A DNA stretch of 64,000 nucleotides from a virus: the IMG/VR virus record IMGVR_UViG_3300008108_000118; one strand, 5' to 3'. This document shows, one piece after another, positions 25,718 to 39,778 of this stretch (within the stretch, counting starts at the first letter, position 1; every line of letters begins with the position of its first letter). A program made the translations under genes and the position numbers. Under the pieces are notes generated by a model that saw nothing but the letters and a program-made list of their open reading frames with translations, was not told where the DNA came from and did no database searches.

Positions 25718-26787
25718 TGTTAGATATATTAGAAAAATATCACAATGATGGTCTGTTATTAAAACAGACACACCCAACATTACCTTTAACAATTTGGAAT
25801 TACTCACCAAAAGTTCAATATGATAACTTATGGGATGATGTTATTATTCAATGTAGAGGATTAGTTACCGATGTTGATGGTAATATTGTTGCTCGACCTT
25901 TTCCAAAATTTTTTAATTACGAAGAATTAAAACCCGAACAGATACCAAACGAACCATTTGATGTTTTTGAAAAATTAGATGGGTCTTTAGGTATATTATT
26001 TAATTATGAAGGTCAATGGGTATTTGCAACTCGTGGATCATTTACATCCGATCAAGCAAAAAGAGGATGGGAACTTCTTCAAAAATATGACTACCAAAGA
26101 TTAATTGAGGATAAAACATATCTATTTGAAATAATTTATAAAGAAAATCGTATTGTTGTTGATTATGATTATGAAGATCTAATAATGCTCGGTGTAATTG
26201 ACAATATCGATGGTTACGAATATAAAATATTTGACGAAAGAATCCATCTTGAAGGTGTTAGGTTCGTTAATATGTATAGAAATCTTGGATTTAAATTTGT
26301 TAAAAAATATGATGGTATAAAAGACTATTCAACCCTAAAAGAAATAATCAAAGATAATGAAGAGGGATTCGTTATTAGATTTCAAAATGGGTTTAGAATG
26401 AAAATAAAAGGTGTAGAATATTGTCGTCTCCATAAAATCCTAACAAACATCTCAAATAGAGATATTTGGGAATCTTTAAAAAATGGAGAATCATTAGATA
26501 AAATTATTGAAAAGGTACCCGATGAATTTTATAATTGGGTAAAAGAAACAAAAAATAAATTTGAGTCAGAATTTGATAAAATAAAAAAAGAATATGAATG
26601 GATATTCAAAGTTATTATGAGATCGGAAAATTCAAATGAAAGAAAAGTATTCGCACAATTTGCAATAAAATACAAATATTCTTCAATTCTATTTTCTATG
26701 TATGATAATAAACCATATAATCAAACAATATGGAAAATCCTATATCCTGAGTATTCGAAACCTTTTAAAAAAAATGATAATGAGTAA
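25717..26787 (+). CDS. RNA ligase (Rnl, nucleotidyltransferase superfamily)
   Basis: Motif I FEKLDGSLG (KxDG) and motif IV-like EGFVIRF are typical of T4 Rnl1/Rnl2-type ATP-dependent RNA ligases. Confidence 0.75.
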   Translation: MLDILEKYHNDGLLLKQTHPTLPLTIWNYSPKVQYDNLWDDVIIQCRGLVTDVDGNIVARPFPKFFNYEELKPEQIPNEPFDVFEKLDGSLGILFNYEGQWVFATRGSFTSDQAKRGWELLQKYDYQRLIEDKTYLFEIIYKENRIVVDYDYEDLIMLGVIDNIDGYEYKIFDERIHLEGVRFVNMYRNLGFKFVKKYDGIKDYSTLKEIIKDNEEGFVIRFQNGFRMKIKGVEYCRLHKILTNISNRDIWESLKNGESLDKIIEKVPDEFYNWVKETKNKFESEFDKIKKEYEWIFKVIMRSENSNERKVFAQFAIKYKYSSILFSMYDNKPYNQTIWKILYPEYSKPFKKNDNE

Positions 26788-29958: not shown

Positions 29959-30047
29959 GCCCCGGTGGTGGAACAGGTAGACACGCAGGACTTAAAATCC
30001 TGTGGACCGAAACGTCCGTGCGGGTTCGATTCCCGCCTGGGGCACCA
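29959..30047 (+). tRNA. tRNA-Leu (anticodon TAA), type II, CCA encoded
   Basis: GCCCCGG...acceptor, anticodon loop CTTAAAA, variable arm GGACCGAAACGTCC, T-arm GCGGGTTCGATTCCCGC, ends GGGGCACCA. Confidence 0.85.
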
Positions 30048-30084
30048 ATACTATCGTTCTTTGACATATAAGGAGAAACAAATT

Positions 30085-30450
30085 ATGGAAATACTTTTCT
30101 TTATTTTAGGAATTACTTCCGTGGTGGTTATTGCGACCGCAATAGTTGCTGTGGTAAGTATTGTTAAGGTAACAAAGTTACAAACAAAAGTTAAAGATGG
30201 TTTTGATGGTGTTTATCATTCAATTGATAATACACATACTTCCATCGATAACACAAAAAGAGATACTCACGATAACATCGGAAGATTAAATGAAGAAGTT
30301 AATCGTAGAGTTGATAACCTCGAAAGAGAAACCTTCTCACAGTTAGATTCTCGATTAGATAAGTTGGAAACGAAGTTAAAAACTTACGTTCACACTAATG
30401 CAACCATGATGAAACTTGCATTAGATACACATAAAGCAACATCAAAATAA
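30085..30450 (+). CDS. small membrane-anchored coiled-coil protein (121 aa)
   Basis: AGGAG SD 9 nt upstream. N-terminal TM helix (ILFFILGITSVVVIATAIVAVVSIV). Track ORF 29926.. overlaps tRNA-Leu and was trimmed. Confidence 0.55.
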   Translation: MEILFFILGITSVVVIATAIVAVVSIVKVTKLQTKVKDGFDGVYHSIDNTHTSIDNTKRDTHDNIGRLNEEVNRRVDNLERETFSQLDSRLDKLETKLKTYVHTNATMMKLALDTHKATSK

Positions 30451-30606
30451 AATAAAAGTCAAAAGAACGATAGTATTAAGGTTGAACGGGGAATGAAGAT
30501 TAAGACACCTGTTGGTGGTTGGTGATTATCTTCGGAGTTGGAACCAACATAGTAATGCCGTTCGTAAAAGAGGATGTCCACTCGACCATCTTCCTCTTTC
30601 CTTCTT

Positions 30607-30677
30607 GGTCTCATAGTTTAAGGGAAAAACGGTAGCCTTCTAAGCTTCTGATCCTAGTTCGAGTCTAGGTGAGACTA
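30607..30677 (+). tRNA. tRNA-Arg (anticodon TCT)
   Basis: GGTCTCA/TGAGACT acceptor (G1-U72), D-stem GTTT/AAAC, anticodon loop CTTCTAA, perfect T-arm CCTAG-TTCGAGT-CTAGG. Embedded in a GC-richer ORF-free region. Confidence 0.7.
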
Positions 30678-30898
30678 CAAAGTTCCTGTAGGCCGCGGGA
30701 TCGTAGTTCCTCTATTCCACTGACAAAAGTCAAGAAAAGAGCCAGATCGTAAGCTGGATGGGTTGACAACTTTCCCACTGACTCGGAAAAAAGTTGTAAA
30801 TTTTAAGCGGGTCCTCGCTTCCCACGGTTTAATAGTACAAGGATAATGAAGGGAATAATACGACCCCTAAGACCTGCTTTTATTAAAAAAAATAAAAT

Positions 30899-31330
30899 AT
30901 GAATTACAAATTAAAAGAAATGCCCGAAAAAGTATATTGGGCGGAAACAAAACAATTTACAGTTGAAAATGAAAATGGTGAAACATTTGATATTCGAATT
31001 GGTGAAAGTTCAAAATTTACTGAATATTGGATTTGGAAAGATCCGGGTGGATGGGAAGAAATTGATGATGATGATCTTATGGAGTATATAAATGAACAAT
31101 TTGCCGATGATGAATGGGAATTTGAACTTTCTGCACAAAAAGAAAGAGAAGAAAAAATGGATAAAATTATTGATGAATATATTAAAGAAAATGGTGATCA
31201 AATAAAAATAGATGAATTAGTGTCTAAAATAAGTAGAGAAAATCTATATCCACGAAATATCACATTTTACGAAGAGTTTTATCACAACTATCATTATGTC
31301 AATAAAAAAATAAAACAACTTAATAAATAA
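30899..31330 (+). CDS. hypothetical acidic protein, 143 aa
   Basis: ORF with AT-rich upstream region. No family recognised. Confidence 0.5.
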   Translation: MNYKLKEMPEKVYWAETKQFTVENENGETFDIRIGESSKFTEYWIWKDPGGWEEIDDDDLMEYINEQFADDEWEFELSAQKEREEKMDKIIDEYIKENGDQIKIDELVSKISRENLYPRNITFYEEFYHNYHYVNKKIKQLNK

Positions 31331-31332
31331 AA

Positions 31333-31536
31333 ATGGAAAATTATAGAAAAGTATTAATTTTTGTGATGTGTTTTTTGGTCACATTTATCGGTGGCATTAT
31401 TGTTACAGAATTATCCGCCTATCTTTTAACTTTACCAAATACAATTGCAAATATTTTTGGTTATATCATTTTAATCACTACCTTTGTATTGATCCTCTTA
31501 TTAGGACATAAATTAGTAAAATCTTTAAACAAATAA
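31333..31536 (+). CDS. small membrane protein (67 aa, 2 TM)
   Basis: Hydrophobic segments FVMCFLVTFIGGIIVT and IFGYIILITTFVLILLL. Confidence 0.45.
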   Translation: MENYRKVLIFVMCFLVTFIGGIIVTELSAYLLTLPNTIANIFGYIILITTFVLILLLGHKLVKSLNK

Positions 31537-31547
31537 AAAAAACAGTT

Positions 31548-32492
31548 ATGATTGGAATTATCACATTTACCTTATCGGTAGTAGTATTAGGAATTTTATT
31601 CGGAGTATTTAACTTCAAAAATTATTTGTCAGAACCTGACAAGTACAATAATACAAAAATAAAAGCGAGTGCAGTTATTAAAGCGGTTGTTGTGTTTATT
31701 GTATCTATTATCTTGGCAATCATCAATCCAATTTCAGTTGAACGAATTGATGTTGGACACGTAGGATTAAAAATCAACAACACCGGAGATGAAAAAGGTA
31801 TCAGTAAGACCACATATGTAACGGGTTGGGTGTTTTATAATAGTTGGTTATCTCGTATTAAGGAGTATCCCGTGACCCAACAACATGTAGATTACGAAGA
31901 AACCGCAATCATCACAAAAGGTGGGTTCCAAGCGGTAATTAAACCAAGTTTTAACTGGTCTGTGAATCCATCCAATGCCGCTGATATGTATCAAAATCTC
32001 AGACAAGATGTTGATCAGATTAAAGAAACTTGGTTGAAGAACGCTATTATAGGTGCCGTGAATGATGTTGCCAACTTATATAGTGTCGATTCAATTTTTA
32101 ATCATCGAGCCGAATTTGAATCTGACATTGTAAAAGAATGTAATTTAAGGGTTAGTAAATGGTTTAACGTATCTCAATTAAGAACAAATATTGTTCCTCC
32201 AAAAGAGATCACGGAAGCCATCAACCAAAAGACCAAGGCGGTTCAAGAAGCTCAAGCGGCTATCCAACAAAAGATCGTGGCCGAAGCTCAGGCTTTAACA
32301 CAGATCGCAAAGGCAAAAGGTGATAGTGCTCAAGCGGTGATTGCAGCATCCGGTAGGGCTGAAGCGGTGAGAAAAGAACAACAATACTTAACACCGATGT
32401 ATATTGAGTATATTAGAGCACAAAGATGGGATGGTAAGTATCCACAAACAATGCTCGGTTCTGGTGGAAATGTGTTGTTAAATTTGAAATAG
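31548..32492 (+). CDS. SPFH/band-7 (stomatin/prohibitin/HflKC-like) membrane protein
   Basis: N-terminal TM followed by IDVGHVGLKIN ... VTGWVFYNSW ... and a coiled-coil Ala/Gln-rich C-region. Typical SPFH architecture. Confidence 0.65.
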   Translation: MIGIITFTLSVVVLGILFGVFNFKNYLSEPDKYNNTKIKASAVIKAVVVFIVSIILAIINPISVERIDVGHVGLKINNTGDEKGISKTTYVTGWVFYNSWLSRIKEYPVTQQHVDYEETAIITKGGFQAVIKPSFNWSVNPSNAADMYQNLRQDVDQIKETWLKNAIIGAVNDVANLYSVDSIFNHRAEFESDIVKECNLRVSKWFNVSQLRTNIVPPKEITEAINQKTKAVQEAQAAIQQKIVAEAQALTQIAKAKGDSAQAVIAASGRAEAVRKEQQYLTPMYIEYIRAQRWDGKYPQTMLGSGGNVLLNLK

Positions 32493-32499
32493 AATATTA

Positions 32500-32704
32500 A
32501 GTCAGGTGGCGGAATAGAATGTAATGATGATTTGGACGATTAGTCGACACGTAATCACGTGACTATTTCTATCCTTATCAGATGTTGAATCATCGAATCT
32601 TACATTCTTTGGTAGACGATAATCACGGAAACCTAATGAGGTAGAGAACGCAAGTGAGAGGTATCTGCGGATACCGTACGGGTTCGAATCCTGTCCTGAC
32701 TACA
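32500..32704 (+). ncRNA. tRNA-like RNA with ~130-nt internal insertion (perfect 7-bp acceptor stem plus canonical T-arm)
   Basis: 5' AGTCAGG pairs with 3' CCTGACT (then A, CA). T-arm ACGGG-TTCGAAT-CCTGT. Internal 9-bp inverted repeat AGAATGTAA/TTACATTCT encloses the insertion. No ORF. Confidence 0.45.
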
Positions 32705-32716
32705 ATTTTGATATTT

Positions 32717-33277
32717 ATGGGAATGTTAAGAAAAATAAAATATTGGTTTGAATACGAAGGAAGATATCTTCACAAAGATTTTATTAAAGGTGTAAAAAAT
32801 CTGTGGAAATGGTTTCCAACTATTTGGAAAGATAGAGAACATGACTATCATTTTATTTTAGTTCTTCTTGAAAAGAAACTTAATTTTCAATCAAAATATA
32901 TTGGTTATAAAAATAGACATTCAGAAGCAACTAGAGATTCTGAACGTATGATGACATGTGTTCGTCTTATACAAAAAATAAAAGAAGATTACTATAATAC
33001 GGAATATGTGGATTATCAAAAAAGTGAATTTCATTTTGATCCCATTCCCGATAGACCTACCCACAAACAACTTCGTATTGAGGAAATTTCAGATAATTTT
33101 GATGATTATTTTAAAATATATCCTCGTATCTATAAAAAAGTTTTTAATGAACTTGATGTGGATCAAAGAAACTCAAAAAGAATTATTGCTATTCGTATGA
33201 GTTGGGAAAATCACAACAGAGCAAAAAAACTTTTATTTAAAATGATGGAAAATCATATCGAGTCTTGGTGGGATTGA
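32717..33277 (+). CDS. hypothetical protein, 186 aa (Trp/Tyr-rich)
   Basis: Track ORF 32654.. overlaps the tRNA-like element. Start moved to the in-frame ATG at 32717. Confidence 0.5.
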   Translation: MGMLRKIKYWFEYEGRYLHKDFIKGVKNLWKWFPTIWKDREHDYHFILVLLEKKLNFQSKYIGYKNRHSEATRDSERMMTCVRLIQKIKEDYYNTEYVDYQKSEFHFDPIPDRPTHKQLRIEEISDNFDDYFKIYPRIYKKVFNELDVDQRNSKRIIAIRMSWENHNRAKKLLFKMMENHIESWWD

Positions 33278-33314
33278 TTTTTTTTCTTATATTATATAAA
33301 ATAAAACATAAATT

Positions 33315-33500
33315 ATGAAATGTATCAAATCAATTAAGTCAACTAAAAACACCGAAATCGGGGTAATTAAAAGAATTGACGACAAAGAAGCAGAATCAAT
33401 GGTTAAATCAGGTTATTGGAAATATGTTCCTAAATCTGAATTTAAAATTAAAAAAGTAAAAGAAGATGAAACATTAAGGGAACAATATCCCGCCAATTAA
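33315..33500 (+). CDS. small hypothetical protein, 61 aa
   Basis: Short basic ORF. Weak. Confidence 0.3.
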   Translation: MKCIKSIKSTKNTEIGVIKRIDDKEAESMVKSGYWKYVPKSEFKIKKVKEDETLREQYPAN

Positions 33501-33697
33501 AAAAAATAATAAAAAAGTTTCGAAATAATTTTTTTATTATTTCAAATTTACATATATTTGCATATATTTATAAGACAATGACAAACTTGTTTAACATACT
33601 AACGATAGAGAATACACCAAATAATGGTGGTGGGTATGATGTGCCAGTATACAAACAAGTTCGGAGTTAAAAAAATTTATTAAAACAAAATAAACAT

Positions 33698-33730
33698 AAA
33701 CCCGAACACAAAAAGTTCGGGTTTTTTTTG
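33698..33730 (+). terminator. intrinsic terminator (ACCCGAAC-ACAAAAA-GTTCGGGT plus T8) 20 nt upstream of tRNA array 1
   Basis: 8-bp stem followed by a T-run. Confidence 0.6.
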
Positions 33731-33751
33731 TTAATAGATCTTTGAAATAAT

Positions 33752-33825
33752 CGGGATGTAGTTCAGTCCGGTAGAATGCTTGGTTTGGGACCAAGATGTC
33801 GTAGGTTCGAATCCTGCCATCCCGA
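33752..33825 (+). tRNA. tRNA-Pro (TGG)
   Basis: Acceptor CGGGATG/CATCCCG, anticodon loop TTTGGGA, T-arm GTAGGTTCGAATCCTGC. Confidence 0.8.
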
Positions 33826-33831
33826 CATAAT

Positions 33832-33903
33832 GTCTTCTTAGCTCAACGGTAGAGCAATTGGCTGTTAACCAATAGGTTTTAGGTTCGAATCCTAAAGAGG
33901 ACG
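33832..33903 (+). tRNA. tRNA-Asn (GTT)
   Basis: Acceptor GTCTTCT/AGAGGAC, anticodon loop CTGTTAA, T-loop TTCGAAT. Confidence 0.8.
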
Positions 33904-33908
33904 CAATC

Positions 33909-33990
33909 GCCCCGATGGTGGAATTGGTAGTCACGGCAGACTTAGGATCTGTTGCCTTATGGTGTGAGAGTTCGAGTCTCTCTTGGGGTA
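33909..33990 (+). tRNA. tRNA-Leu (TAG), type II
   Basis: Anticodon loop CTTAGGA, long variable arm, T-arm GAGAG-TTCGAGT-CTCTC. Confidence 0.75.
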
Positions 33991-33999
33991 CATTAAATT

Positions 34000-34072
34000 G
34001 GCCGATTAGTTCAGCAGGTTAGAATGCGTGACTTGTAATCATGAGACGACAGTTCGATTCTGTCATTGGCCT
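34000..34072 (+). tRNA. tRNA-Thr (TGT)
   Basis: Acceptor GGCCGAT/ATTGGCC, anticodon loop CTTGTAA, T-loop TTCGATT. Confidence 0.8.
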
Positions 34073-34077
34073 CATAA

Positions 34078-34151
34078 GCGGATTTCGCCTAGTTGGCATG
34101 GCACCACACTTCCACTGTGGAATAGGGTCGGTTCGAGACCGTCAATCCGCT
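34078..34151 (+). tRNA. tRNA-Gly (TCC)
   Basis: Acceptor GCGGATT/AATCCGC, anticodon stem CCACA/TGTGG with loop CTTCCAC. Confidence 0.8.
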
Positions 34152-34197
34152 CAGAATTTTTTTTATTCAAATATATTTTGTATGTTTGAATTTGTAA

Positions 34198-34280
34198 GGT
34201 GTAGTTGAGCAATTGGTTGGCTCGCCGGACTGTAAATCCGGTCCCTTCGGGGCTTGTAGGTTCGAGTCCTACCTACACCA
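34198..34280 (+). tRNA. tRNA-Tyr (GTA), type II
   Basis: Acceptor GGTGTAG/CTACACC, anticodon loop CTGTAAA, variable arm TCCCTTCGGGGCT. Confidence 0.8.
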
Positions 34281-34286
34281 CAAATT

Positions 34287-34358
34287 GCCGCTGTCGTCTA
34301 ACGGTTAGGACGCGTCCCTTTCACGGACAAAATGCGAGTTCGATTCTCGTCGGTGGTA
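34287..34358 (+). tRNA. tRNA-Glu (TTC)
   Basis: D-region TCGTCTAACGGTTAGGACG is typical of tRNA-Glu. Anticodon loop CTTTCAC. G-U-rich acceptor stem. Confidence 0.7.
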
Positions 34359-34363
34359 CGATT

Positions 34364-34435
34364 GGTCTCATAGTTAATCGGCTATAATATTGCCCTGTCA
34401 CGGCAAAGTGCCGGGTTCGATTCCCGGTGGGACCG
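34364..34435 (+). tRNA. tRNA-Asp (GTC)
   Basis: Acceptor GGTCTCA/TGGGACC, anticodon stem TTGCC/GGCAA with loop CTGTCAC. Confidence 0.8.
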
Positions 34436-34591
34436 CAAACTTCAGGAGTAATTAACCTGAAGATGGAAGGTTCGAAACTTTCGATTGGCTATGGTGTAAT
34501 GGGCACACTGGTCCCGTGATTGGCTCGGTTATCGTCGAGTTTCAGTCGGGACCGGGGGATTCAGGTTCAATTCCTGATTGGTCAGCAAAAT
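34436..34591 (+). other. tRNA-like remnants/unresolved structured RNA (T-arm-like GAAGG-TTCGAAA-CTTTC; hairpin CTTCAGG-N9-CCTGAAG; second T-arm TCAGG-TTCAATT-CCTGA; GGTCCCG/CGGGACC inverted repeat)
   Basis: Contains two canonical-looking T-arms, but no acceptor stem can be paired for either. Could be tRNA pseudogenes or a noncanonical/intron-bearing tRNA. Confidence 0.3.
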
Positions 34592-34665
34592 GGACCCTTA
34601 GCTCAGTAGGTTAGAGCAAATGACTCATAATCATTAGGTGCACGGTTCGAGCCCGTGAGGGTCCA
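34592..34665 (+). tRNA. tRNA-Met (CAT) (elongator Met or lysidine-Ile type)
   Basis: Acceptor GGACCCT/AGGGTCC, anticodon loop CTCATAA, T-arm CACGGTTCGAGCCCGTG. Confidence 0.8.
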
Positions 34666-34670
34666 CATTT

Positions 34671-34742
34671 AGTCCTTTAGCTTAGTGGGAAAGCGGTTGT
34701 CTTACATGCAACATAGAGTGTGTTCGATTCACACAGGGACTA
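34671..34742 (+). tRNA. tRNA-Val (TAC)
   Basis: Acceptor AGTCCTT/AGGGACT, anticodon stem GTTGT/GCAAC with loop CTTACAT. Confidence 0.75.
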
Positions 34743-34850
34743 CCCCCGATATGTATGTGTAAGCAAGAAGCATATCATCAGTTGGGATCTTACAGTCCAC
34801 GAACTGGGGTCCGGTGGGAACCGGGATGAGAGTACCCGAACCTCTCAAAC
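34743..34850 (+). other. unresolved ~108-nt spacer with hairpins (GATATG...CATATC; CCGGTGGGAACCGG), possible degenerate tRNA
   Basis: No canonical cloverleaf could be built on either strand. Confidence 0.25.
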
Positions 34851-34922
34851 GCAGATATAGCACAATGGTTAGTGTTCGGCCTTGCCAAGGCTGAGATGCC
34901 AGTTCGAATCTGACTATCTGCT
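34851..34922 (+). tRNA. tRNA-Gly (GCC)
   Basis: Acceptor GCAGATA/TATCTGC, anticodon region CCTTGCCAAGG, T-arm GCCAGTTCGAATCTGAC. Confidence 0.8.
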
Positions 34923-34923
34923 C

Positions 34924-35078
34924 AAATTGTACTGTGGTGAAATTGGCAGACACCCCCACTCGTCTCGTGGGCGTCGACAACGAAATAGGTAAATGGATAA
35001 GGGTTGACCACAAGCTAGCTAGCATATTTGTCCTTTACCGAATCGCGACATAGACGGTTCGAATCCTCTCGGTACAGC
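34924..35078 (+). other. ~150-nt tRNA-like element (acceptor-like TGTACTG/CGGTACA pairing, anticodon-like CCCAC-TCGTCTC-GTGGG, TTCGAAT T-loop with poorly paired stem); possible intron-containing or pseudo tRNA
   Basis: The termini pair like an acceptor stem, but the body is too long and the T-stem is mismatched. Confidence 0.3.
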
Positions 35079-35106
35079 ATATATTTTTGACAAATAAAAA
35101 TAGTTT

Positions 35107-35346
35107 ATGACGATCTTAATCGGCATCAATGAATTAGAAGAAGAATTTCAAATACCGTGGAAGATGGGATTAGTTAATCATTTGGTCATTGATTACGCAG
35201 ACAACGCAATCTATGGTACATTTGAGAAAAAAGAAGTAATTATTTTTAGGTTCAAAAAATATGGTTGGGTTTGTGATAATAGATACAATTTATACACACT
35301 ATCAAGTGGTGAGGCAGGTATCATGATTAACATGAATTCAACATAA
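35107..35346 (+). CDS. hypothetical protein, 79 aa
   Basis: Short ORF between the tRNA arrays. Confidence 0.4.
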   Translation: MTILIGINELEEEFQIPWKMGLVNHLVIDYADNAIYGTFEKKEVIIFRFKKYGWVCDNRYNLYTLSSGEAGIMINMNST

Positions 35347-35370
35347 AATATTTATTAATAACAACATGTT

Positions 35371-35832
35371 ATGAGAAAATTTAAAACATTATTCGGAATT
35401 GAGATTGATAATCTTGCTGAATATATTAAAGAATATATTTCAACAAGAGAAAATGTGGAGATATTAGTTGGCGCCGATTCTCAAAATTATAGTAATAGAA
35501 AAACTATATATGGAGTTGTTATTGCCTTATACACAAAAGGTAAAGGTGCACATGTTTTGTGTTCAAGAGATACTGTTCCAATTGAGAGAAACACATCAAC
35601 CAGATTACTTACTGAAGTTTGGAAATCAATTGAGACCGCAGAATTTTTAAAAGAAAATGGTTTACCAAAACCATTATGGATTGATATTGACTTAAATCCT
35701 GATCCGAAATTTAAATCAAATACCGTATTAAGACAAGCGGTTGGTCTTGTTGAAGGTATGGGTTATCAAGTTAGATATAAACAATTAGGTGCTATGGTAA
35801 CATACGCCGCAAATCACTTAGTTAGAAATTAA
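35371..35832 (+). CDS. RNase H-fold DUF458/YkuK-like protein, putative
   Basis: ILVGADSQ ... IYGVVIALYTKGKGAHVL resembles the IGTDSQ..GG.A.FVT.IV....GKGA core of the YkuK family. Recalled from memory only. Confidence 0.4.
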   Translation: MRKFKTLFGIEIDNLAEYIKEYISTRENVEILVGADSQNYSNRKTIYGVVIALYTKGKGAHVLCSRDTVPIERNTSTRLLTEVWKSIETAEFLKENGLPKPLWIDIDLNPDPKFKSNTVLRQAVGLVEGMGYQVRYKQLGAMVTYAANHLVRN

Positions 35833-35844
35833 ATTATACTTTTC

Positions 35845-35875
35845 TTTGTTTTTACAATATTTATTATTATCTTTG
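35845..35875 (+). promoter_or_regulatory. sigmaA-type promoter TTTG-N19-TATCTTTG
   Basis: -33 at 35845-48 and -7 at 35868-75. Drives a ~170-nt unit that ends at the terminator at 36027-36062. Confidence 0.5.
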
Positions 35876-35904
35876 TAAAACAAAAGATTAAAAAAATAAA
35901 TTCG

Positions 35905-36006
35905 ATGAAACAGTTCAAACATATTATGTCGTTTATTAGTTGTTCAAAATGGGCAAGTCAGCGTCATATCCGTATGTCCCGATCTGTTTGTATGAATTTG
36001 TGTTAA
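35905..36006 (+). CDS. possible small Cys-rich peptide (33 aa, MKQFKHIMSFISCSKWASQRHIRMSRSVCMNLC) or sRNA
   Basis: Only ORF within the promoter-to-terminator unit 35876-36062. Confidence 0.2.
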   Translation: MKQFKHIMSFISCSKWASQRHIRMSRSVCMNLC

Positions 36007-36026
36007 AATATTTTAATAAGTAATTC

Positions 36027-36062
36027 AAAAAAACCTCGGGACAAAATCTCGAGGTTTTTTGT
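36027..36062 (+). terminator. intrinsic terminator (ACCTCG-N11-CGAGGT plus T6)
   Basis: A-tract, hairpin, T-tract. Confidence 0.65.
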
Positions 36063-36067
36063 TTTAT

Positions 36068-36140
36068 GGGCTGTCATGTTCCAAGGCTGGCGAAGGACCC
36101 TTGCAAGGTCTTTGGGAGATTTCGATTATCTCACGGTCCA
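36068..36140 (+). tRNA. putative tRNA-Ala (TGC), weak D-arm
   Basis: Acceptor GGGCTGT/ACGGTCC (two G-U pairs), anticodon stem GGACC/GGTCT with loop CTTGCAA, perfect T-arm GAGAT-TTCGATT-ATCTC. D-stem pairs poorly. Confidence 0.4.
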
Positions 36141-36146
36141 CATAAT

Positions 36147-36220
36147 GTTCGGGTAGATCAATTGGTGAGATCATTCGCCTGATACGCGAAAGGTTGTAGG
36201 TTCGAGTCCTACTCCGAACA
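36147..36220 (+). tRNA. tRNA-Ile (GAT)
   Basis: Anticodon stem TTCGC/GCGAA with loop CTGATAC. T-arm GTAGGTTCGAGTCCTAC. Confidence 0.8.
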
Positions 36221-36225
36221 CGAAT

Positions 36226-36298
36226 GGTACACAAGCTAACTTAGTAGAAGCATTGGACTGAAAATCCAAGGGACTTGGAGCGTAACCAAGGTGTACCA
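36226..36298 (+). tRNA. tRNA-Phe (GAA)-like with noncanonical T-loop (AGCGTAA)
   Basis: Perfect acceptor GGTACAC/GTGTACC. Anticodon stem TTGGA/TCCAA with loop CTGAAAA. T-stem CTTGG/CCAAG, but the loop lacks the TTCRANY signature. Confidence 0.5.
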
Positions 36299-36307
36299 CA
36301 AACATAT

Positions 36308-36381
36308 TCCCTCGTAACTCAATTGGCTAGAGTACCACACTTTTAATGTGGGAGTTTCGAGTTCGAATCTCGACGGGGGAA
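36308..36381 (+). tRNA. tRNA-Lys (TTT)
   Basis: U1-A72 start. D-stem ACTC/GAGT. Anticodon stem CCACA/TGTGG with loop CTTTTAA. T-arm TCGAG-TTCGAAT-CTCGA. Confidence 0.75.
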
Positions 36382-36385
36382 CAAT

Positions 36386-36456
36386 GGTCGGATGGCCGAG
36401 TGGATTAGGTGGAGGTCTGCAAAACCTCTTACGTCAGTTCGATTCTGACTCCGACC
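36386..36456 (+). tRNA. tRNA-Cys (GCA)
   Basis: Acceptor GGTCGGA/TCCGACC. Anticodon stem GAGGT/ACCTC with loop CTGCAAA. T-arm GTCAG-TTCGATT-CTGAC. Confidence 0.8.
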
Positions 36457-36463
36457 TCAAATA

Positions 36464-36536
36464 CACGGGTGTGGTGAAATTGGTTATCATTTCGGTCTCC
36501 AAAACCGACGTTTCAGATTCGAATTCTGACATCCGT
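36464..36536 (+). tRNA. tRNA-Trp (CCA)
   Basis: Acceptor ACGGGTG/CATCCGT. Anticodon stem TCGGT/ACCGA with loop CTCCAAA. T-arm TCAGA-TTCGAAT-TCTGA. Confidence 0.8.
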
Positions 36537-36540
36537 GCAA

Positions 36541-36613
36541 TGGTTCTATGGTGTAATGGATTAGCACACGAAGCTACGGACTTCGGAGTTTGGGTTCGAG
36601 TCCTAATAGAACC
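36541..36613 (+). tRNA. tRNA-Arg (ACG)
   Basis: Acceptor GGTTCTA/TAGAACC. Anticodon stem CGAAG/CTTCG with loop CTACGGA. Confidence 0.8.
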
Positions 36614-36618
36614 ACATA

Positions 36619-36691
36619 TTGTTCCGTGATGTAATGGTTAGCATACAAGAATTTGACTCTTGTAGTATAGGTTCGAGTCCTATCGGAACAT
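36619..36691 (+). tRNA. tRNA-Gln (TTG)
   Basis: U1-A72 acceptor TGTTCCG/CGGAACA. Anticodon stem CAAGA/TCTTG with loop ATTTGAC. Confidence 0.75.
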
Positions 36692-36697
36692 CATAAA

Positions 36698-36780
36698 GGA
36701 GAGGTCGTATAGTGGTTTAGTACAGTAGTCTTGAAAACTACCGAGTTTAGGCTCCGTGGGTTCGAATCCCACCCTCTCCG
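36698..36780 (+). tRNA. tRNA-Ser (TGA), type II
   Basis: Acceptor GGAGAGG/CCTCTCC. Anticodon loop CTTGAAA. Long variable arm. Confidence 0.8.
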
Positions 36781-36785
36781 CATAT

Positions 36786-36864
36786 GGTGGCCTGAGATGG
36801 GTTGGTTACATCGTCAGATTGTGGCTCTGAAGAACACGGGTTCGACTCCCGTAGGTCACACCAA
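36786..36864 (+). tRNA. tRNA-His (GTG) with extra 5' G(-1), CCA encoded
   Basis: G-1 precedes acceptor GTGGCCT/AGGTCAC. Anticodon stem TCAGA/TCTGA with loop TTGTGGC. Confidence 0.75.
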
Positions 36865-36867
36865 AAG

Positions 36868-36955
36868 GAGAGTAAACTACGACGGTGAGTAGACATGCCT
36901 GCTAAGCATTGTGTTCGTTAATTCGGATGAGGTTCGATCCCTCTACTCTCCGCCA
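36868..36955 (+). tRNA. tRNA-Ser (GCT), type II, CCA encoded
   Basis: Acceptor GGAGAGT/ACTCTCC. Anticodon loop CTGCTAA. Long variable arm. T-arm GAGG-TTCGATC-CCTC. Confidence 0.75.
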
Positions 36956-36958
36956 AAT

Positions 36959-37031
36959 GCCGTGGGTTAGTGGAATACGACTATCTCTCATAAGGATGGA
37001 GAACACAGTTCGAACCTGTGCTACGGTACCA
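36959..37031 (+). tRNA. tRNA-Met/Ile2 (CAT) with short D-loop, CCA encoded
   Basis: T-arm CACAG-TTCGAAC-CTGTG. Anticodon stem TATCT/GGATG (2 G-U) with loop CTCATAA. G-U-containing acceptor stem. Confidence 0.55.
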
Positions 37032-37051
37032 AAAAAAAGTTTTAAAAAGAT

Positions 37052-37082
37052 TTTGTATTTTAAAAAAGTATTTATATCTTTG
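37052..37082 (+). promoter_or_regulatory. sigmaA-type promoter TTTG-N19-TATCTTTG upstream of the initiator-like tRNA
   Basis: -33 at 37052-55 and -7 at 37075-82, 18 nt before the tRNA 5' end. Confidence 0.5.
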
Positions 37083-37100
37083 TAAAAGTTCTTTAAACAT

Positions 37101-37172
37101 CGTGGCGTGGAGAAGTGGTATCTCACTAGGCTCATAACCTAGGGACCGTTGGTTCGAATCCAACCGCCGCAA
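37101..37172 (+). tRNA. initiator-like tRNA-fMet (CAT) with unpaired C1-A72
   Basis: The C1-A72 mismatch is the bacterial initiator hallmark. D-stem GAGA/TCTC. Anticodon stem CTAGG/CCTAG with loop CTCATAA. T-arm GTTGG-TTCGAAT-CCAAC. Confidence 0.65.
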
Positions 37173-37192
37173 CAAAAAAGTTTTAAAAAGAT

Positions 37193-37223
37193 TTTGTTTT
37201 TTGAAAAACTCTTTTTATATTTG
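37193..37223 (+). promoter_or_regulatory. sigmaA-type promoter TTTG-N19-TATATTTG (first of a tandem pair)
   Basis: -33 at 37193-96 and -7 at 37216-23. Confidence 0.5.
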
Positions 37224-37280
37224 TAAAACAATTCGGTAATACACACCGAAAAAGTTCTTAAAAAAAAAGTTTGACAAAAA

Positions 37281-37312
37281 TTTGGAAAGTTGAAAAACAC
37301 TTCTTATCTTTG
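37281..37312 (+). promoter_or_regulatory. sigmaA-type promoter TTTG-N20-TATCTTTG (second of a tandem pair), directed into the ORF-free GC-rich region
   Basis: -33 at 37281-84 and -7 at 37305-12. Confidence 0.5.
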
Positions 37313-37329
37313 TAAAACAATCGGAAACG

Positions 37330-38214
37330 ATAAAGTTCTTTGAAAATATTGGGCGGTCTATAGTCCATAAAATAAACCATGAAAGTGGTATAAAGTGGAA
37401 TACCTTGGTTTTGGTATTCTGCGGCTTGGGTAACCGAGCTCGAGTAGACAAACGAGATATCGTCTGACCTTTAGTACTGAGGGTAACACTGTAGGGAAAG
37501 TGGTTGGGCGATCAAGCGATGTGGGTCGTTTGGTTGAGGTGGGAACACCAATAAGAATAACTCGTAGAATTATTGCAAGAAATGTTGTTATCCGACTTCA
37601 TAATTGCGTTTTTCAATATTATGGTTGTCTTAAAACCGAAAGGTATGTTAGTGTACAGGTGGTGCTGTTATTAACCTTAACCTTAGCCTACCAAGGCATG
37701 AGTTATGAAGATGAGCAAAAATATGGAGGTGGGGACATCTCAGAGGGTAGTTTAGTATTTAGCCGTTCAAAAGATGGCTGAGCTGGTGACGAACCACTAC
37801 CTTCACAATCCACAAACCAATAACTTGCATCCATTTAATTGCAAAATTAATAAATCAAGGAAAAGTGTTCGTCAGTTGTGGATGACAGGTCACTACATAG
37901 TCATGAGTTGTTCATGGCCATGAAGGGTCCCAAGCCCAACATGATTTTCACCAAAGTTCTCTAATCTCGCAAGGATTAATTGGGGTGGCAACCTCGAAGA
38001 GTGATGAGTAATGAGAGAGTGATTCACAACTTAAGGATTGGTTAATCTAATTGACCGTGACTGATTATTACTACTCAAAAGGTAGTGGATAAGGGAAGAA
38101 TCAATAATGTCCCAAAGATAATCACCCGAACGTGTAATCTCAGCGTTTTATTTTCCTGATTTTTATAAAATCATGGTGGTGGAGTAATAAAAAGATTTCA
38201 TGCCGCAAGGCCCC
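37330..38214 (+). ncRNA. candidate large structured noncoding RNA (~0.9 kb, GC-richer than flanks, no credible ORF), bounded by the tandem promoters and the terminator at 38215-38244
   Basis: No ORF over 93 aa in any frame inside a genome that is otherwise about 90% coding. Base composition shifts to GC-rich. Many local inverted repeats. Defined promoter and terminator. Adjacent to tRNA arrays. Confidence 0.4.
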
Positions 38215-38244
38215 AAAGGTTAGATTTTTCTAACCTTTTTTTGT
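38215..38244 (+). terminator. intrinsic terminator (AGGTTAGA-TTTT-TCTAACCT plus T7)
   Basis: Perfect 8-bp stem followed by a T-run. Ends the ORF-free unit. Confidence 0.7.
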
Positions 38245-38274
38245 TTTTATATTTTTTTTATTTATATTATACCT

Positions 38275-39027
38275 ATGAGATTAATTTGTATATCAGACAC
38301 ACATTCTTTACATGAAAGAATGACACATAAAGTTGAAAAATATATCGATCCTGATCAAGACAATATACTCATCCATGCGGGGGATTGTACTAATATGGGT
38401 AGAGAACCTGAAATTATTGAATTTGTTTATTGGTATCAAAATTTAAAAGGATTTGATACCAAGATCTTTATTGCGGGTAATCATGATTTTGGTTTTGAAC
38501 ATTATAATGGTCTTCGTCATAGTAATGAGGCACCTTGGTTACATCATATAATAAATGAGGAGAATTTATCTCAATCAGATGTCGTTTATCTTCATGATTC
38601 TGAATTTGTAATTGAACATCCGAAATTTTCAAGACCAATTAAATTTTATGGAAGTCCTTGGCAACCTGAATTTTATAATTGGGCATTTAATCTTCCAAGA
38701 AATGGTTGGGAGTTAGAACTTAAATGGAAAGAAATACCAGATGATACTGATATATTGATCACACACGGACCTCCACATGGTTGTAGAGATTTTACACCAC
38801 AAAATTTACAAGTTGGTTGTGAATTGTTGAGATATAGATTAGATACATTAAAACCACTTGTCCATGTGTTTGGACATATTCATCATGCATATGGTGGTGC
38901 ATATATTGATGATGTTTTATACATTAACGCATCAACATGTACAGAAAGATATGTCCCACGTAATAGACCTATTGTTGTTGATTTAAAAGAAGAAGATGGT
39001 AAAATAGTTACTACCTATATTGATTAA
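38275..39027 (+). CDS. calcineurin-like metallophosphoesterase
   Basis: Motifs DTH, GDCTN (GD), GNHD and GHIHH match the MPP superfamily signature D-x-H...GD...GNH[DE]...H...GH-x-H. Confidence 0.85.
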   Translation: MRLICISDTHSLHERMTHKVEKYIDPDQDNILIHAGDCTNMGREPEIIEFVYWYQNLKGFDTKIFIAGNHDFGFEHYNGLRHSNEAPWLHHIINEENLSQSDVVYLHDSEFVIEHPKFSRPIKFYGSPWQPEFYNWAFNLPRNGWELELKWKEIPDDTDILITHGPPHGCRDFTPQNLQVGCELLRYRLDTLKPLVHVFGHIHHAYGGAYIDDVLYINASTCTERYVPRNRPIVVDLKEEDGKIVTTYID

Positions 39028-39320: not shown

Positions 39321-39350
39321 GTCTATATTTGTGAAAGTTCTTTAAAATAT

Positions 39351-39743
39351 GGGGGTGTCCAGGTATTGATTGGCGTTTATATGGTAAATGGGCACGTAGT
39401 CAGATGTCATCTATGACTTAAATCTACGGTGGTAAAAATCAAACGGCAACGTTTACAACAACATGGAAATTGCAGGTATCCTTGCAACTTCTAAAGTAGC
39501 TGCTTAATAAGTACCTACTGTCGGGTCGGTTAGGACATATAACCCAGGAACAGAAGTCCGTTATACGGGTCACAGGTCAGAGCTCGTTTAAAATAATTCT
39601 GAGACCAAGTTGTTTGTAGGTAGGTTTCTCACATATATCAAACCTAATATTTTGGAACATTGAGAACCAATGTTATACTAAACGTGTAGTCCATCTATTG
39701 TATGGCGAACAAGACAAGGGTTCGATTCCCTTCACCTCCACCA
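39351..39743 (+). ncRNA. ssrA: tmRNA-like (SsrA-like) RNA, ~393 nt
   Basis: 5' GGGGGTG pairs with 3' CACCTCC-ACCA, giving a 7-bp acceptor stem with G3-U70. T-arm AAGGG-TTCGATT-CCCTT. Possible internal tag frame ...AGILATSKVAA followed by TAATAA. Preceded by TATATTTG and followed by a terminator. Confidence 0.55.
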
Positions 39744-39747
39744 AAAA

Positions 39748-39778
39748 TTAAACCCATCGAATTCGATGGGTTTTTTAT
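39748..39778 (+). terminator. intrinsic terminator (AACCCATCGAATTCGATGGGTT plus T6) after the tmRNA-like gene
   Basis: Perfect palindromic stem followed by a T-run. Confidence 0.7.

Follow-up and report, generated by a model that had tools for sequence, protein, structure and literature searches.

GOLLD is among the largest bacterial and phage RNAs of undefined role, and we know of no partner or role established for it. It exceeds 800 nt and has two domains, of which the 5' one is structured but less conserved, and its genes are usually found beside tRNA genes in phages or prophages. The structure of a GOLLD nanocage became available as late as 2025 (Kretsch et al. 2025, PMC12286853), when cryo-EM revealed a 14-mer (PDB 9MEE) of env-38, an RNA encoded on the marine metagenome scaffold JCVI_SCAF_1096627009515. 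In this cage, the 5' domain forms the cap and the 3' domain the ring, and the linker J13/15 is disordered and points into the interior (PMC12286853). The kissing interaction of L20 with J13/15, found by covariation in 2009, was shown in 2025 to be the inter-subunit bridge B7. GOLLD from Streptococcus agalactiae (Sag) is a 12-mer (PDB 9L0R), also an RNA-only cage, built through kissing loops and contacts in the minor groove, and the isolated 3' domain gives 8-, 10- and 12-mers, the 10-mer being PDB 9LMF (PMC12990946). GOLLD nanocages assemble at nanomolar RNA, GOLLD expression was reported to rise during phage lysis, ribosome pull-down was reported as well, and tRNAs are embedded in the linkers of some GOLLDs (PMC12286853; PMC12990946; PMC6582537). 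The Rfam family RF02032 includes GOLLDs of a Lactobacillus brevis prophage, Caulobacter phiCbK-like phages and Acinetobacter phages AM24, Ab15 and Herod (Weinberg et al. 2009). The GOLLD of a Mycobacterium tRNA array is part of a tRNA cluster that came from phages and was transferred horizontally (Morgado et al. 2020, PMC6582537).

The window considered here, a stretch of 64,000 nucleotides from the IMG/VR virus record IMGVR_UViG_3300008108_000118, contains a full-length GOLLD gene, which is a newly found locus of a previously described family. The preliminary description of this DNA had proposed a large ornate non-coding RNA of the GOLLD or ROOL type and suggested an Rfam cmscan search. This search gave a match to the whole GOLLD model (positions 1-416 of 416) with 338.5 bits and E 2.3e-96, more than twice the gathering threshold of 150 bits, and the score was reproduced in a second scan of 36850-38270 at E ≤ 1. 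The GOLLD alternative was thus borne out, and the accession quoted for it, RF01998, was wrong, the Rfam library having the family as RF02032. This model covers the conserved 3' half of GOLLD only, and the conserved RNA, roughly 800 nt long (about 37350-38146), consists of two domains:

37350-37742, + strand: GOLLD 5' domain, outside the Rfam model, aligned collinearly with env-38 from its residue ~4
37743-38146, + strand: GOLLD 3' domain (conserved core), full-length RF02032 match with 89 covarying predicted pairs

Almost certainly, this phage gene encodes a GOLLD RNA with an architecture of the env-38 type. The two RNAs have a collinear two-domain architecture from end to end with 65% identity; both genes lie downstream of a tRNA-Met (env-38 context: PMC12286853), and both RNAs have an A-rich unstructured linker without a tRNA, in contrast to the mycobacterial GOLLD, whose linker holds a tRNA or pseudo-tRNA (PMC6582537; PMC12990946). 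The window RNA differs from env-38 in several indels, e.g., a 10-nt insertion near 37522-37531 and a deletion of ~14-17 nt beside the L11a hairpin, in fewer complementary bases in the B4 kissing loops, and in a 68-nt 3' extension before the terminator that the env-38 construct does not contain. Sag GOLLD belongs to the same family and lacks P9, P11a-c and P21b (PMC12990946), whereas the window RNA has loops corresponding to L11a, L21a and L21b and therefore resembles env-38 more closely. With the members of RF02032, it shares the full-model 3'-domain match and the context of a phage and a tRNA array, but the 5' domains of cultured-phage GOLLDs are divergent from it. In blastn searches, Acinetobacter phages matched only the 3' part of the window RNA, no GenBank phage covered ≥80% of the unit, and the best GenBank phage matches were two uncultured huge phages with 67-72% identity. 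A megablast search with 20 kb of the window gave no match among GenBank phages, and a 50-mer taken from the GOLLD 5' domain had no exact counterpart in IMG/VR. The closest IMG/VR relatives are ~80% identical across ~810 nt, and the 5'-domain signature was found in at least 118 IMG/VR uncultured-virus loci.

Base pairing is strongly selected for in the two domains. RNAalifold predicted 199 pairs, 150 of them with compensatory changes. Among 45 full-length homologs, the 108 pairs predicted in the 5' domain are formed in 97.8% of cases, as compared with 81% in shuffled and 38-41% in slid controls; 82 of these pairs show compensatory changes, and the covariation score was 0.567 vs 0.233 (shuffled) and ~0.09 (slid). 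The 89 covarying pairs of the 3' domain are exemplified by alignment columns 558/580 (CG in 23 and UA in 22 sequences), 702/863 (GC 18, AU 18), 910/924 (AU 17, UA 17, GC 8) and 978/992 (CG 23, GC 20). RNAalifold also paired columns 27-28 with 969-970, connecting the 5' and 3' parts, and this was not counted as a helix, since a compensatory change was never seen there. The structured, GNRA-rich character noticed earlier is confirmed by a minimum free energy of -234.6 kcal/mol (-205.9 ± 6.0 in 20 shuffles, z = -4.8) and by many GNRA-type loops (GAAA, GGAA, GCAA, GGGA). The raised GC content was also found as described: 0.407 at 37347-38146 vs 0.307 in the whole window and 0.315 in the next gene.

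All elements of the env-38 bridges B1-B10, taken from the residue lists of PDB 9MEE, have counterparts in the window. The available copy of env-38 (supplementary PDF) has 815 nt rather than 833, with ~17 nt missing, and 129 of 140 named residues fit a monotonic offset; for this reason, the contacts were mapped by local sequence context:

37381-37384: contact element GAAA
37479-37487: contact element GAGGGUAAC
37542-37545: contact element GGAA
37590-37593 with 37732-37735: contact pair AUCC and GGGA
37659-37662 with 37690-37693: contact pair GUGG and ACCA
37768-37772: contact element CAAAA
37806-37873, + strand: A-rich variable linker J13/15, unpaired in the Rfam alignment
37858-37860 with 37928-37934: B7 kissing contact, J13/15 AGG and L20 loop UCCCAAG
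37968-37973: contact element CGCAAG
37987-37990: contact element GGCA
38087-38092: contact element GGAUAA

Both pairs of the B7 contact covary in 45 of 45 sequences, one existing as G-C (26), C-G (14) or A-U (5) and the other as G-C (39) or U-A (6). In the B4 kissing contact, one pair switches between U-A (39) and C-G (6), and the kissing helix appears to keep ~3 of the five Watson-Crick pairs of env-38 in this family. The loop L21a alternates between the palindromes GC and CG, a switch that was reported among env-38 relatives (PMC12286853). ARAGORN called no tRNA inside the linker 37806-37873. Judging from the conservation of these contacts, the RNA would fold without protein and self-assemble into a closed homo-oligomeric nanocage, with the A-rich linker probably facing the interior. 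By analogy with env-38, this cage is most likely a D7 14-mer.

The conserved RNA is embedded in a set of putative transcription signals:

37052-37082: third match to the pattern TTTG-N19/20-TAnnTTTG, in front of the tRNA
37193-37223, + strand: putative promoter P1, Bacteroidota-type pattern match with -33 TTTG, 19-nt spacer and -7 TATATTTG
37232-37250, + strand: small hairpin TTCGGT-AATACAC-ACCGAA after P1, followed by AAAGTTCTTA
37281-37312, + strand: putative promoter P2, pattern match with -33 TTTG, 20-nt spacer and -7 TATCTTTG
37319-37330, + strand: leader hairpin ATCG-GAAA-CGAT
37332-37341, + strand: leader AAAGTTCTTT, followed by GAAAA (leader 37319-37346)
38215-38245, + strand: intrinsic terminator from the terminator scan, with a 10-bp stem AAAGGTTAGA-TTTT-TCTAACCTTT (hairpin 38215-38238) and a T-run

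The pattern TTTG-N19/20-TAnnTTTG occurs 11 times in the window vs 2.0 ± 1.5 expected, and none of 100 shuffles reached 11, which upholds the tandem promoters proposed at 37193-37223 and 37281-37312; the textbook intrinsic terminator was likewise recovered. The three promoter sites sit in a 62-nt cassette present in three copies, two of which are 81% identical to the reference copy. P2 ends ~38 nt before the first GOLLD helix, and in relatives with the full promoter motif its end is most often 34-44 nt upstream of GOLLD. Such elements recur in relatives on both sides of the gene: the 60 nt preceding GOLLD contain GTTCTTT in 38 of 73, and a terminator-like hairpin occurs within 250 nt downstream in 51 of 69. 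These promoters point to a Bacteroidota host, whose RNA polymerase would transcribe the gene from one or both of them, P2 being the likelier main start. With its end at the intrinsic terminator, the primary transcript would be roughly 925 nt long, and it may be trimmed at the AAAGTTCTTT leader. Exact copies of this leader also stand 16-18 nt upstream of the tRNA-fMet (37085) and of a tmRNA (39334). The unit of ~0.9 kb described earlier holds as a stretch from promoter to terminator, and the conserved RNA within it is shorter, ~800 nt, with 68 nt more before the terminator. The terminator scan flags the small hairpin 37232-37250 on the - strand only.

The neighbouring genes include the following:

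37101-37173, + strand: initiator-type tRNA-Met(CAT) (ARAGORN; Rfam tRNA, 61.5 bits)
38275-39027, + strand: calcineurin-like metallophosphoesterase, 250 aa (Pfam PF00149, E 6e-17; PHROG 1649)
39351-39743, + strand: phage tmRNA with the tag frame ...GNVYNNMEIAGILATSKVAA and two stops (Rfam RF00023, 86.8 bits vs gathering 47; translation)

As had been stated, the unit lies next to tRNA genes: the nearest of the 23 tRNAs in the window, the initiator-type tRNA-Met, lies 174 nt upstream of GOLLD. A C1xA72 mismatch, discriminator A73 and acceptor strands CGUGGCG/CGCCGCA were read from its sequence. The same arrangement recurs in relatives. In 27 of 67 relatives, there is no tRNA within 600 nt upstream of GOLLD. 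A metallophosphoesterase homolog follows GOLLD in 18 relatives. The tmRNA, with its own -7 box and AAAGTTCTTT leader, starts 1.2 kb downstream of GOLLD, and homologous tmRNAs are located 1.9-2.5 kb downstream in nine relatives. ARAGORN did not call the tmRNA of the window, though it called the homologs in relatives, so the assignment rests on Rfam and the tag reading frame.

Between the last GOLLD hairpin and the terminator, alignment with relatives defines one more conserved region:

38147-38214, + strand: 3' extension, ~68 nt, made up of a U-run, an A/U hairpin (38157-38173), ATGGTGGTGG (38174-38183) and GCC-GCAA-GGC-CCC (38196-38208)

It lies outside both RF02032 and the env-38 construct and is common to ~17 relatives. 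Compensatory changes are seen in the hairpin of this extension, and 12 of 12 aligned sequences keep its UGGUGG unchanged. A pairing of UGGUGG with the conserved AUCCACAA at the linker start showed no covariation when the alignment was read by eye. It was rejected, because the linker-start flank varies (CGGU, UCGG, CUGC) in relatives carrying the invariant UGGUGG. The same motif is complementary to the CCACCA 3' end of tmRNA, with both sides invariant and their co-occurrence confounded by phylogeny; a pairing between them is a weak idea suggested by complementarity.

Other readings of the unit differ considerably in probability. By its size, GC content, GNRA loops and nearby tRNA genes, the unit might also be taken for ROOL (RF03087; 8-mer cage, PDB 9MDS), likewise a large RNA of phages and plasmids found near tRNA genes and forming an RNA-only nanocage (PMC12286853), but the sequence and fold of ROOL are unrelated to the GOLLD of the window, and it gave no match either at the gathering threshold in the window or at E ≤ 1 in 36850-38270. 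Indeed, across all 4227 Rfam models, no family other than GOLLD matched the unit at the gathering threshold or at E ≤ 1, and only GOLLD and tRNAs were matched in these whole-Rfam scans. A different class of large RNA, be it ROOL, a group I or II intron, RNase P, HEARO or OLE, is therefore extremely improbable, in agreement with the earlier remark that RNase P motifs do not fit. We assign an equally negligible probability to a decayed or frameshifted protein-coding gene, or to a unit encoding the longest frame present in it:

37500-37781: open reading frame of 93 aa with a GTG start (ORF listing)

This frame had not been regarded as credible in the preliminary description, and it has no match in Pfam or PHROGs. 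A frame of at least this length arises in 8.7% of mononucleotide shuffles, and just 14 of 45 homologs retain it. Relative to the window, 21 of 44 homologs have length differences over its columns that are not divisible by 3, and mismatch rates are flat across codon positions (0.28, 0.24 and 0.26); substitutions fall instead as pairs across helices. With the ORF list, Pfam, PHROGs, ORF conservation, frame-keeping indels and codon bias all negative, the coding reading may be counted as already refuted by comparative data. Two findings had been named that would speak against a structured RNA, namely the lack of an Rfam hit and of covarying structure in homologs, or an intact protein gene at this place in homologs. 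The Rfam match, the extensive compensatory covariation in both halves and a conserved ORF in none of the homologs dispose of both.

Two further alternatives accept the GOLLD assignment and concern what the RNA forms or yields. It seems rather unlikely, in our opinion, that this homolog does not build an env-38-like 14-mer and exists as a 10- or 12-mer, a monomer or a protein-bound RNA in vivo. The oligomeric state does vary among GOLLDs (PMC12990946), the window RNA has indels and a shorter B4 kissing helix relative to env-38, and its 3' extension is missing from the solved construct; however, none of the ten bridge elements is missing, two of them show covariation between their loops, and the L21a, L21b and L11a-like GAAA loops, which the window RNA has, are elements of env-38 absent from the 12-mer Sag GOLLD (PMC12990946). 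Much less probable is the reading in which the body of GOLLD serves chiefly as a carrier and the active small RNA is processed from the leader or the UGGUGG extension, or in which the transcript is a precursor co-processed with the neighbouring tRNAs. The identical leader before tRNA-fMet, GOLLD and tmRNA, the conserved extension with its covarying hairpin and invariant UGGUGG, and the tRNAs embedded in some GOLLDs would suit it, but ~27 relatives terminate ~11 nt past the last GOLLD hairpin without any extension, and the flanks are under much weaker selection than the ~200 base pairs of the body.

As for the function of the env-38-like cage, it is possible, and we propose this tentatively, that it acts in infection as part of the phage's module for the takeover of translation; this guess draws only on the gene neighbourhood and published hints. 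To this module would here belong 23 tRNAs, an initiator-type tRNA-Met, a tmRNA and a candidate phosphoesterase for RNA ends, and the cage would serve to bind, store or shield RNAs of translation or ribosomal particles. Catalysis, or the regulation of one particular mRNA, is in our view not the role of GOLLD. A narrower version, improbable as it stands, makes GOLLD the core of a stable-RNA module that is conserved and co-regulated (initiator-type tRNA-Met, GOLLD, metallophosphoesterase and tmRNA, in this order, the three RNAs having the AAAGTTCTTT leader) and lets it work directly with the initiator tRNA and/or tmRNA. The cage might capture these RNAs or protect them from host anticodon or acceptor-end nucleases, and the clade-specific 3' extension would join in through the complementarity of UGGUGG to the tmRNA end. 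If true, this would give GOLLD its first concrete molecular partner.

The locus leaves knowledge of the GOLLD family unchanged. As a clean example of the solved env-38 type, it has promoters, a leader and a terminator that can be delimited, and its environmental clade of more than 100 viral contigs holds enough covariation for testing inter-subunit contacts. The recurrent linkage to tRNA-Met, tmRNA and the phosphoesterase, together with the common leader, suggests experiments on a translation-related role.

The window, with its 23 tRNAs, tmRNA and T4-type portal, does not show the phage genome to be compact, as had been stated earlier. Pfam and PHROG matches identified genes for a T4-type portal, a major head protein and a large terminase in the window, and the identity of the portal protein with cultured phages does not exceed 38%.

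All defining features of GOLLD that can be checked by computation are present at the locus, and its RNA is another member of this known family. The Rfam scan proposed in the preliminary description, which had guessed at an RNA of the GOLLD or ROOL type, was run on the whole window with 4227 families. It gave a single outstanding match besides the tRNAs, GOLLD (RF02032; 37743-38146, + strand), with 338.5 bits (gathering score 150), an E value of 2.3e-96 and coverage of model positions 1-416 of 416. Since a permissive scan (E <= 1) of 36850-38270 found no further family inside the unit, the proposed test is positive for GOLLD, with a negative outcome for ROOL, introns, RNase P and the remaining Rfam families. 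The GOLLD part of the guess thus stands, and its accession, RF01998, was wrong, the library using RF02032.

Other properties of the unit had been described correctly. GC content is 0.407 in the RNA versus 0.307 across the window, and, relative to dinucleotide shuffles, the folding of the 800-nt core is better by 4.8 standard deviations. The longest reading frame, of 93 aa, was dismissed as a coding gene, as had been suggested: it has no family match, a length within chance and no conservation, and codon-position bias was absent in 44 homologs.

The Rfam model is limited to the conserved 3' domain of GOLLD. For the 5' domain (37350-37742), the unit was compared with env-38, a GOLLD from a marine metagenome (sequence taken from Kretsch et al. 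2025, Supplementary Table 4; PMC12286853), the D7 14-mer nanocage of which is PDB 9MEE (PMC12286853). The stretch from ~37350 to 38141 aligns collinearly with env-38 at 65% identity, and therefore the 5' domains are also homologous; judged by sequence, both domains of the locus resemble the env-38 type. A pattern of two invariant 5'-domain blocks, GAGGGTAAC and GGTGGTGCNGTT, 160-190 nt apart, was found in at least 118 IMG/VR loci, the closest among the matches listed having ~80% identity over ~810 nt. Of the GenBank phage records, LR756502 (642 kb) and LR745206 (635 kb), both from uncultured huge phages, are alone in matching the 5' part; matches to Acinetobacter phages AM24, Ab15 and Herod are confined to the 3' part. 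The full-length GOLLDs of LR756502.1 and LR745206.1, whose genomes rank among the largest uncultured phages known, score 275 and 287 bits, have the same 5'-domain type and are each directly adjoined by a tRNA. In Ab15 (PP763259.1), positions 26523-26704, matching the GOLLD 3' domain, are annotated as a 'hypothetical protein', probably a spurious call over the RNA gene; AM24 and Herod carry no annotation at the equivalent place.

The alignment comprised 45 full-length GOLLD sequences filtered to pairwise identities of <=93%. RNAalifold gave 199 pairs, 150 of them with one or more compensatory double changes. Within the 5' domain, which accounts for 108 of the pairs, 97.8% of cells are paired, versus 81.1% in column shuffles and 38-41% when the partner was shifted by 1-3 columns; double changes occur in 82 pairs (55.5 shuffled, 31-43 shifted), and the covariation score is 0.567 (0.233 shuffled, ~0.09 shifted). 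This covariation identifies the entire ~800 nt as a conserved structured RNA. In our opinion, what makes the locus valuable is this large covarying clade and its conserved neighbourhood, which lead to testable hypotheses on GOLLD function.

According to structures published in 2025, GOLLD assembles without protein (PMC12286853), and env-38 forms a hollow 14-mer with the 5' domains as caps, the 3' domains as rings and a variable linker facing inward (PMC12286853). The published inter-subunit bridges B1-B10 were placed in the window by sequence context; residues were mapped by motif and not by number because the available text copy of env-38 is ~17 nt short. All bridge elements have counterparts in the window, and most are invariant across the 45 sequences, including GAAA (B1), GAGGGUAAC (B2) and CAAAA (B6), each in 45/45; the GGAA loop of B3 is kept in 43/45. 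The GUGG and ACCA loops of B5 and the GC-containing loops of B8 and B9 were also found, and B8 alternates between GC and CG palindromes, as reported for relatives of env-38 (PMC12286853). Bridges B4 and B7 are base-paired kissing contacts open to a covariation test. One pair of B7 (the A-rich linker J13/15 with loop L20) is G-C in 26 sequences, C-G in 14 and A-U in 5, and the other is G-C in 39 and U-A in 6, neither being broken in any of the 45; one pair of B4 alternates between U-A (39) and C-G (6). Since all bridge elements were located and B4 and B7 covary, we infer that the RNA of the window would also form a cage. The oligomer would most likely be an env-38-like 14-mer, because counterparts of the loops L11a, L21a and L21b occur in the window; these belong to the elements that env-38 has and a 12-mer-forming Streptococcus RNA lacks (PMC12990946). 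The window differs from env-38 by indels, and the B4 helix is apparently shorter in its family.

The promoter-like sites lie exactly where they had been described, and a terminator scan found the predicted terminator followed by a T-run. The elements of this transcription unit and the exact copies of its leader motif are as follows:
37193-37223, first putative promoter
37281-37312, second putative promoter
37085-37094, AAAGTTCTTT before tRNA-fMet (37101)
37332-37341, AAAGTTCTTT before GOLLD
39334-39343, AAAGTTCTTT before tmRNA (39351)
57189, sole remaining exact copy of AAAGTTCTTT in the window
38147-38214, + strand, 3' extension
38215-38238, terminator

Both putative promoters and a third site before the preceding tRNA belong to a 62-nt cassette with three copies, two of them being 81% identical to the reference copy. 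The end of the second promoter is ~38 nt from the first GOLLD helix, and in relatives with the full promoter motif this distance is mostly 34-44 nt. Between the -7 box and GOLLD there are a small hairpin and the 10-mer AAAGTTCTTT, three of whose four exact copies in 64 kb sit 16-18 nt 5' of stable-RNA starts. Its location before all three RNAs suggests common regulation or processing, and it is probably a leader or processing signal shared by tRNA-fMet, GOLLD and tmRNA.

At the other end, 68 nt separate the last GOLLD hairpin from the strong terminator. Among the matches listed, relatives fall into two classes, with the terminator ~11 nt after the hairpin in ~27 and ~70 nt after it in ~17, including the window. 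The long class shares the order U-run, A/U hairpin with compensatory changes, invariant (A/G)UGGUGG, variable hairpin and GGCC(CC). This clade-specific extension is absent from the RF02032 model, the described GOLLD motif and the solved env-38 construct. UGGUGG is the complement of CCACCA, the tmRNA 3' end, and a possible pairing between them is only a lead.

The flanking genes are as follows:
34592-34666, second tRNA-Met(CAT)
35371-35832, + strand, RNaseH-like protein (PF04308), 5' of GOLLD
37101-37173, + strand, tRNA-Met(CAT) with initiator hallmarks (C1xA72 mismatch, A73, anticodon stem with two G-C pairs at its base)
38275-39027, + strand, calcineurin-like metallophosphoesterase, directly 3' of GOLLD
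39325-39332, tmRNA -7 box TATATTTG
39351-39743, + strand, phage tmRNA (RF00023, 86.8 bits, gathering score 47)
39750-39773, tmRNA terminator

As had been noted, the unit adjoins tRNA genes: 37173-38244 ends a run of 23 tRNAs, all on the + strand (29959-37173). A C1xA72-type mismatch and a discriminator A are hallmarks of bacterial initiator tRNA. Among the matches listed, upstream sequence of 600 nt or more was available for 67 relatives; the nearest upstream tRNA is a same-strand tRNA-Met(CAT) in 37 of them, and 30 of these 37 have a 1:72 mismatch (e.g. loci L043, L025 and L004). Location beside tRNAs is the textbook context of the family (PMC12286853, PMC6582537, PMC12990946), and a GOLLD beside a phage tRNA array would not surprise specialists.

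Two tRNA-like sequences lie between tRNA-His and the tRNA-fMet promoter, both below Rfam thresholds and without an ARAGORN call, possibly tRNAs that are unusual or in decay:
36866-36952, + strand, tRNA-Sec model, 38.1 bits (gathering score 47, E 1e-5), long variable arm, possible GCU anticodon
36959-37028, + strand, tRNA model, 19 bits, CAU anticodon loop, encoded ACCA end

ARAGORN called no tmRNA in the window, although it did call the homologous genes of relatives. Two stop codons follow the tag, whose frame reads (N)GNVYNNMEIAGILATSKVAA, and in at least nine relatives a tmRNA with a near-identical tag lies 1.9-2.5 kb 3' of GOLLD. A metallophosphoesterase homolog is carried by at least 18 relatives, and the RNaseH-like gene is immediately 5' of GOLLD in at least seven; both proteins may act in the repair or processing of RNA ends. 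As far as a limited literature search shows, the recurrent module of initiator-type tRNA, GOLLD, phosphoesterase and tmRNA, in this order and with a shared leader, is undescribed.

The window originates from a tailed phage, as it encodes a T4-type portal, major head protein and large terminase; portal identity to cultured phages is 38% at most. A megablast of 20 kb gave no match among GenBank phages, and an exact 50-mer of the GOLLD 5' domain had no copy in IMG/VR, so that by these searches the genome is in neither collection. TTTG-N19/20-TAnnTTTG, which we take to be the consensus for the Bacteroidota primary sigma factor, occurs at 11 sites (e.g. 25239, 27656, 29898, 31456, 35845, 37052, 37193 and 37281) versus 2.0 +/- 1.5 expected, a ~five-fold enrichment reached in 0 of 100 shuffles. 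Sigma-70-type TTGACA/TATAAT is not enriched near the locus (10 observed versus 13.8 expected). Enrichment of the former consensus makes a Bacteroidota host likely. Two further proteins are encoded near the tRNA region:
22847-24862, + strand, ClpB/ClpA-like double AAA+ ATPase, 671 aa
31548-32492, + strand, SPFH/Band-7 protein, 314 aa
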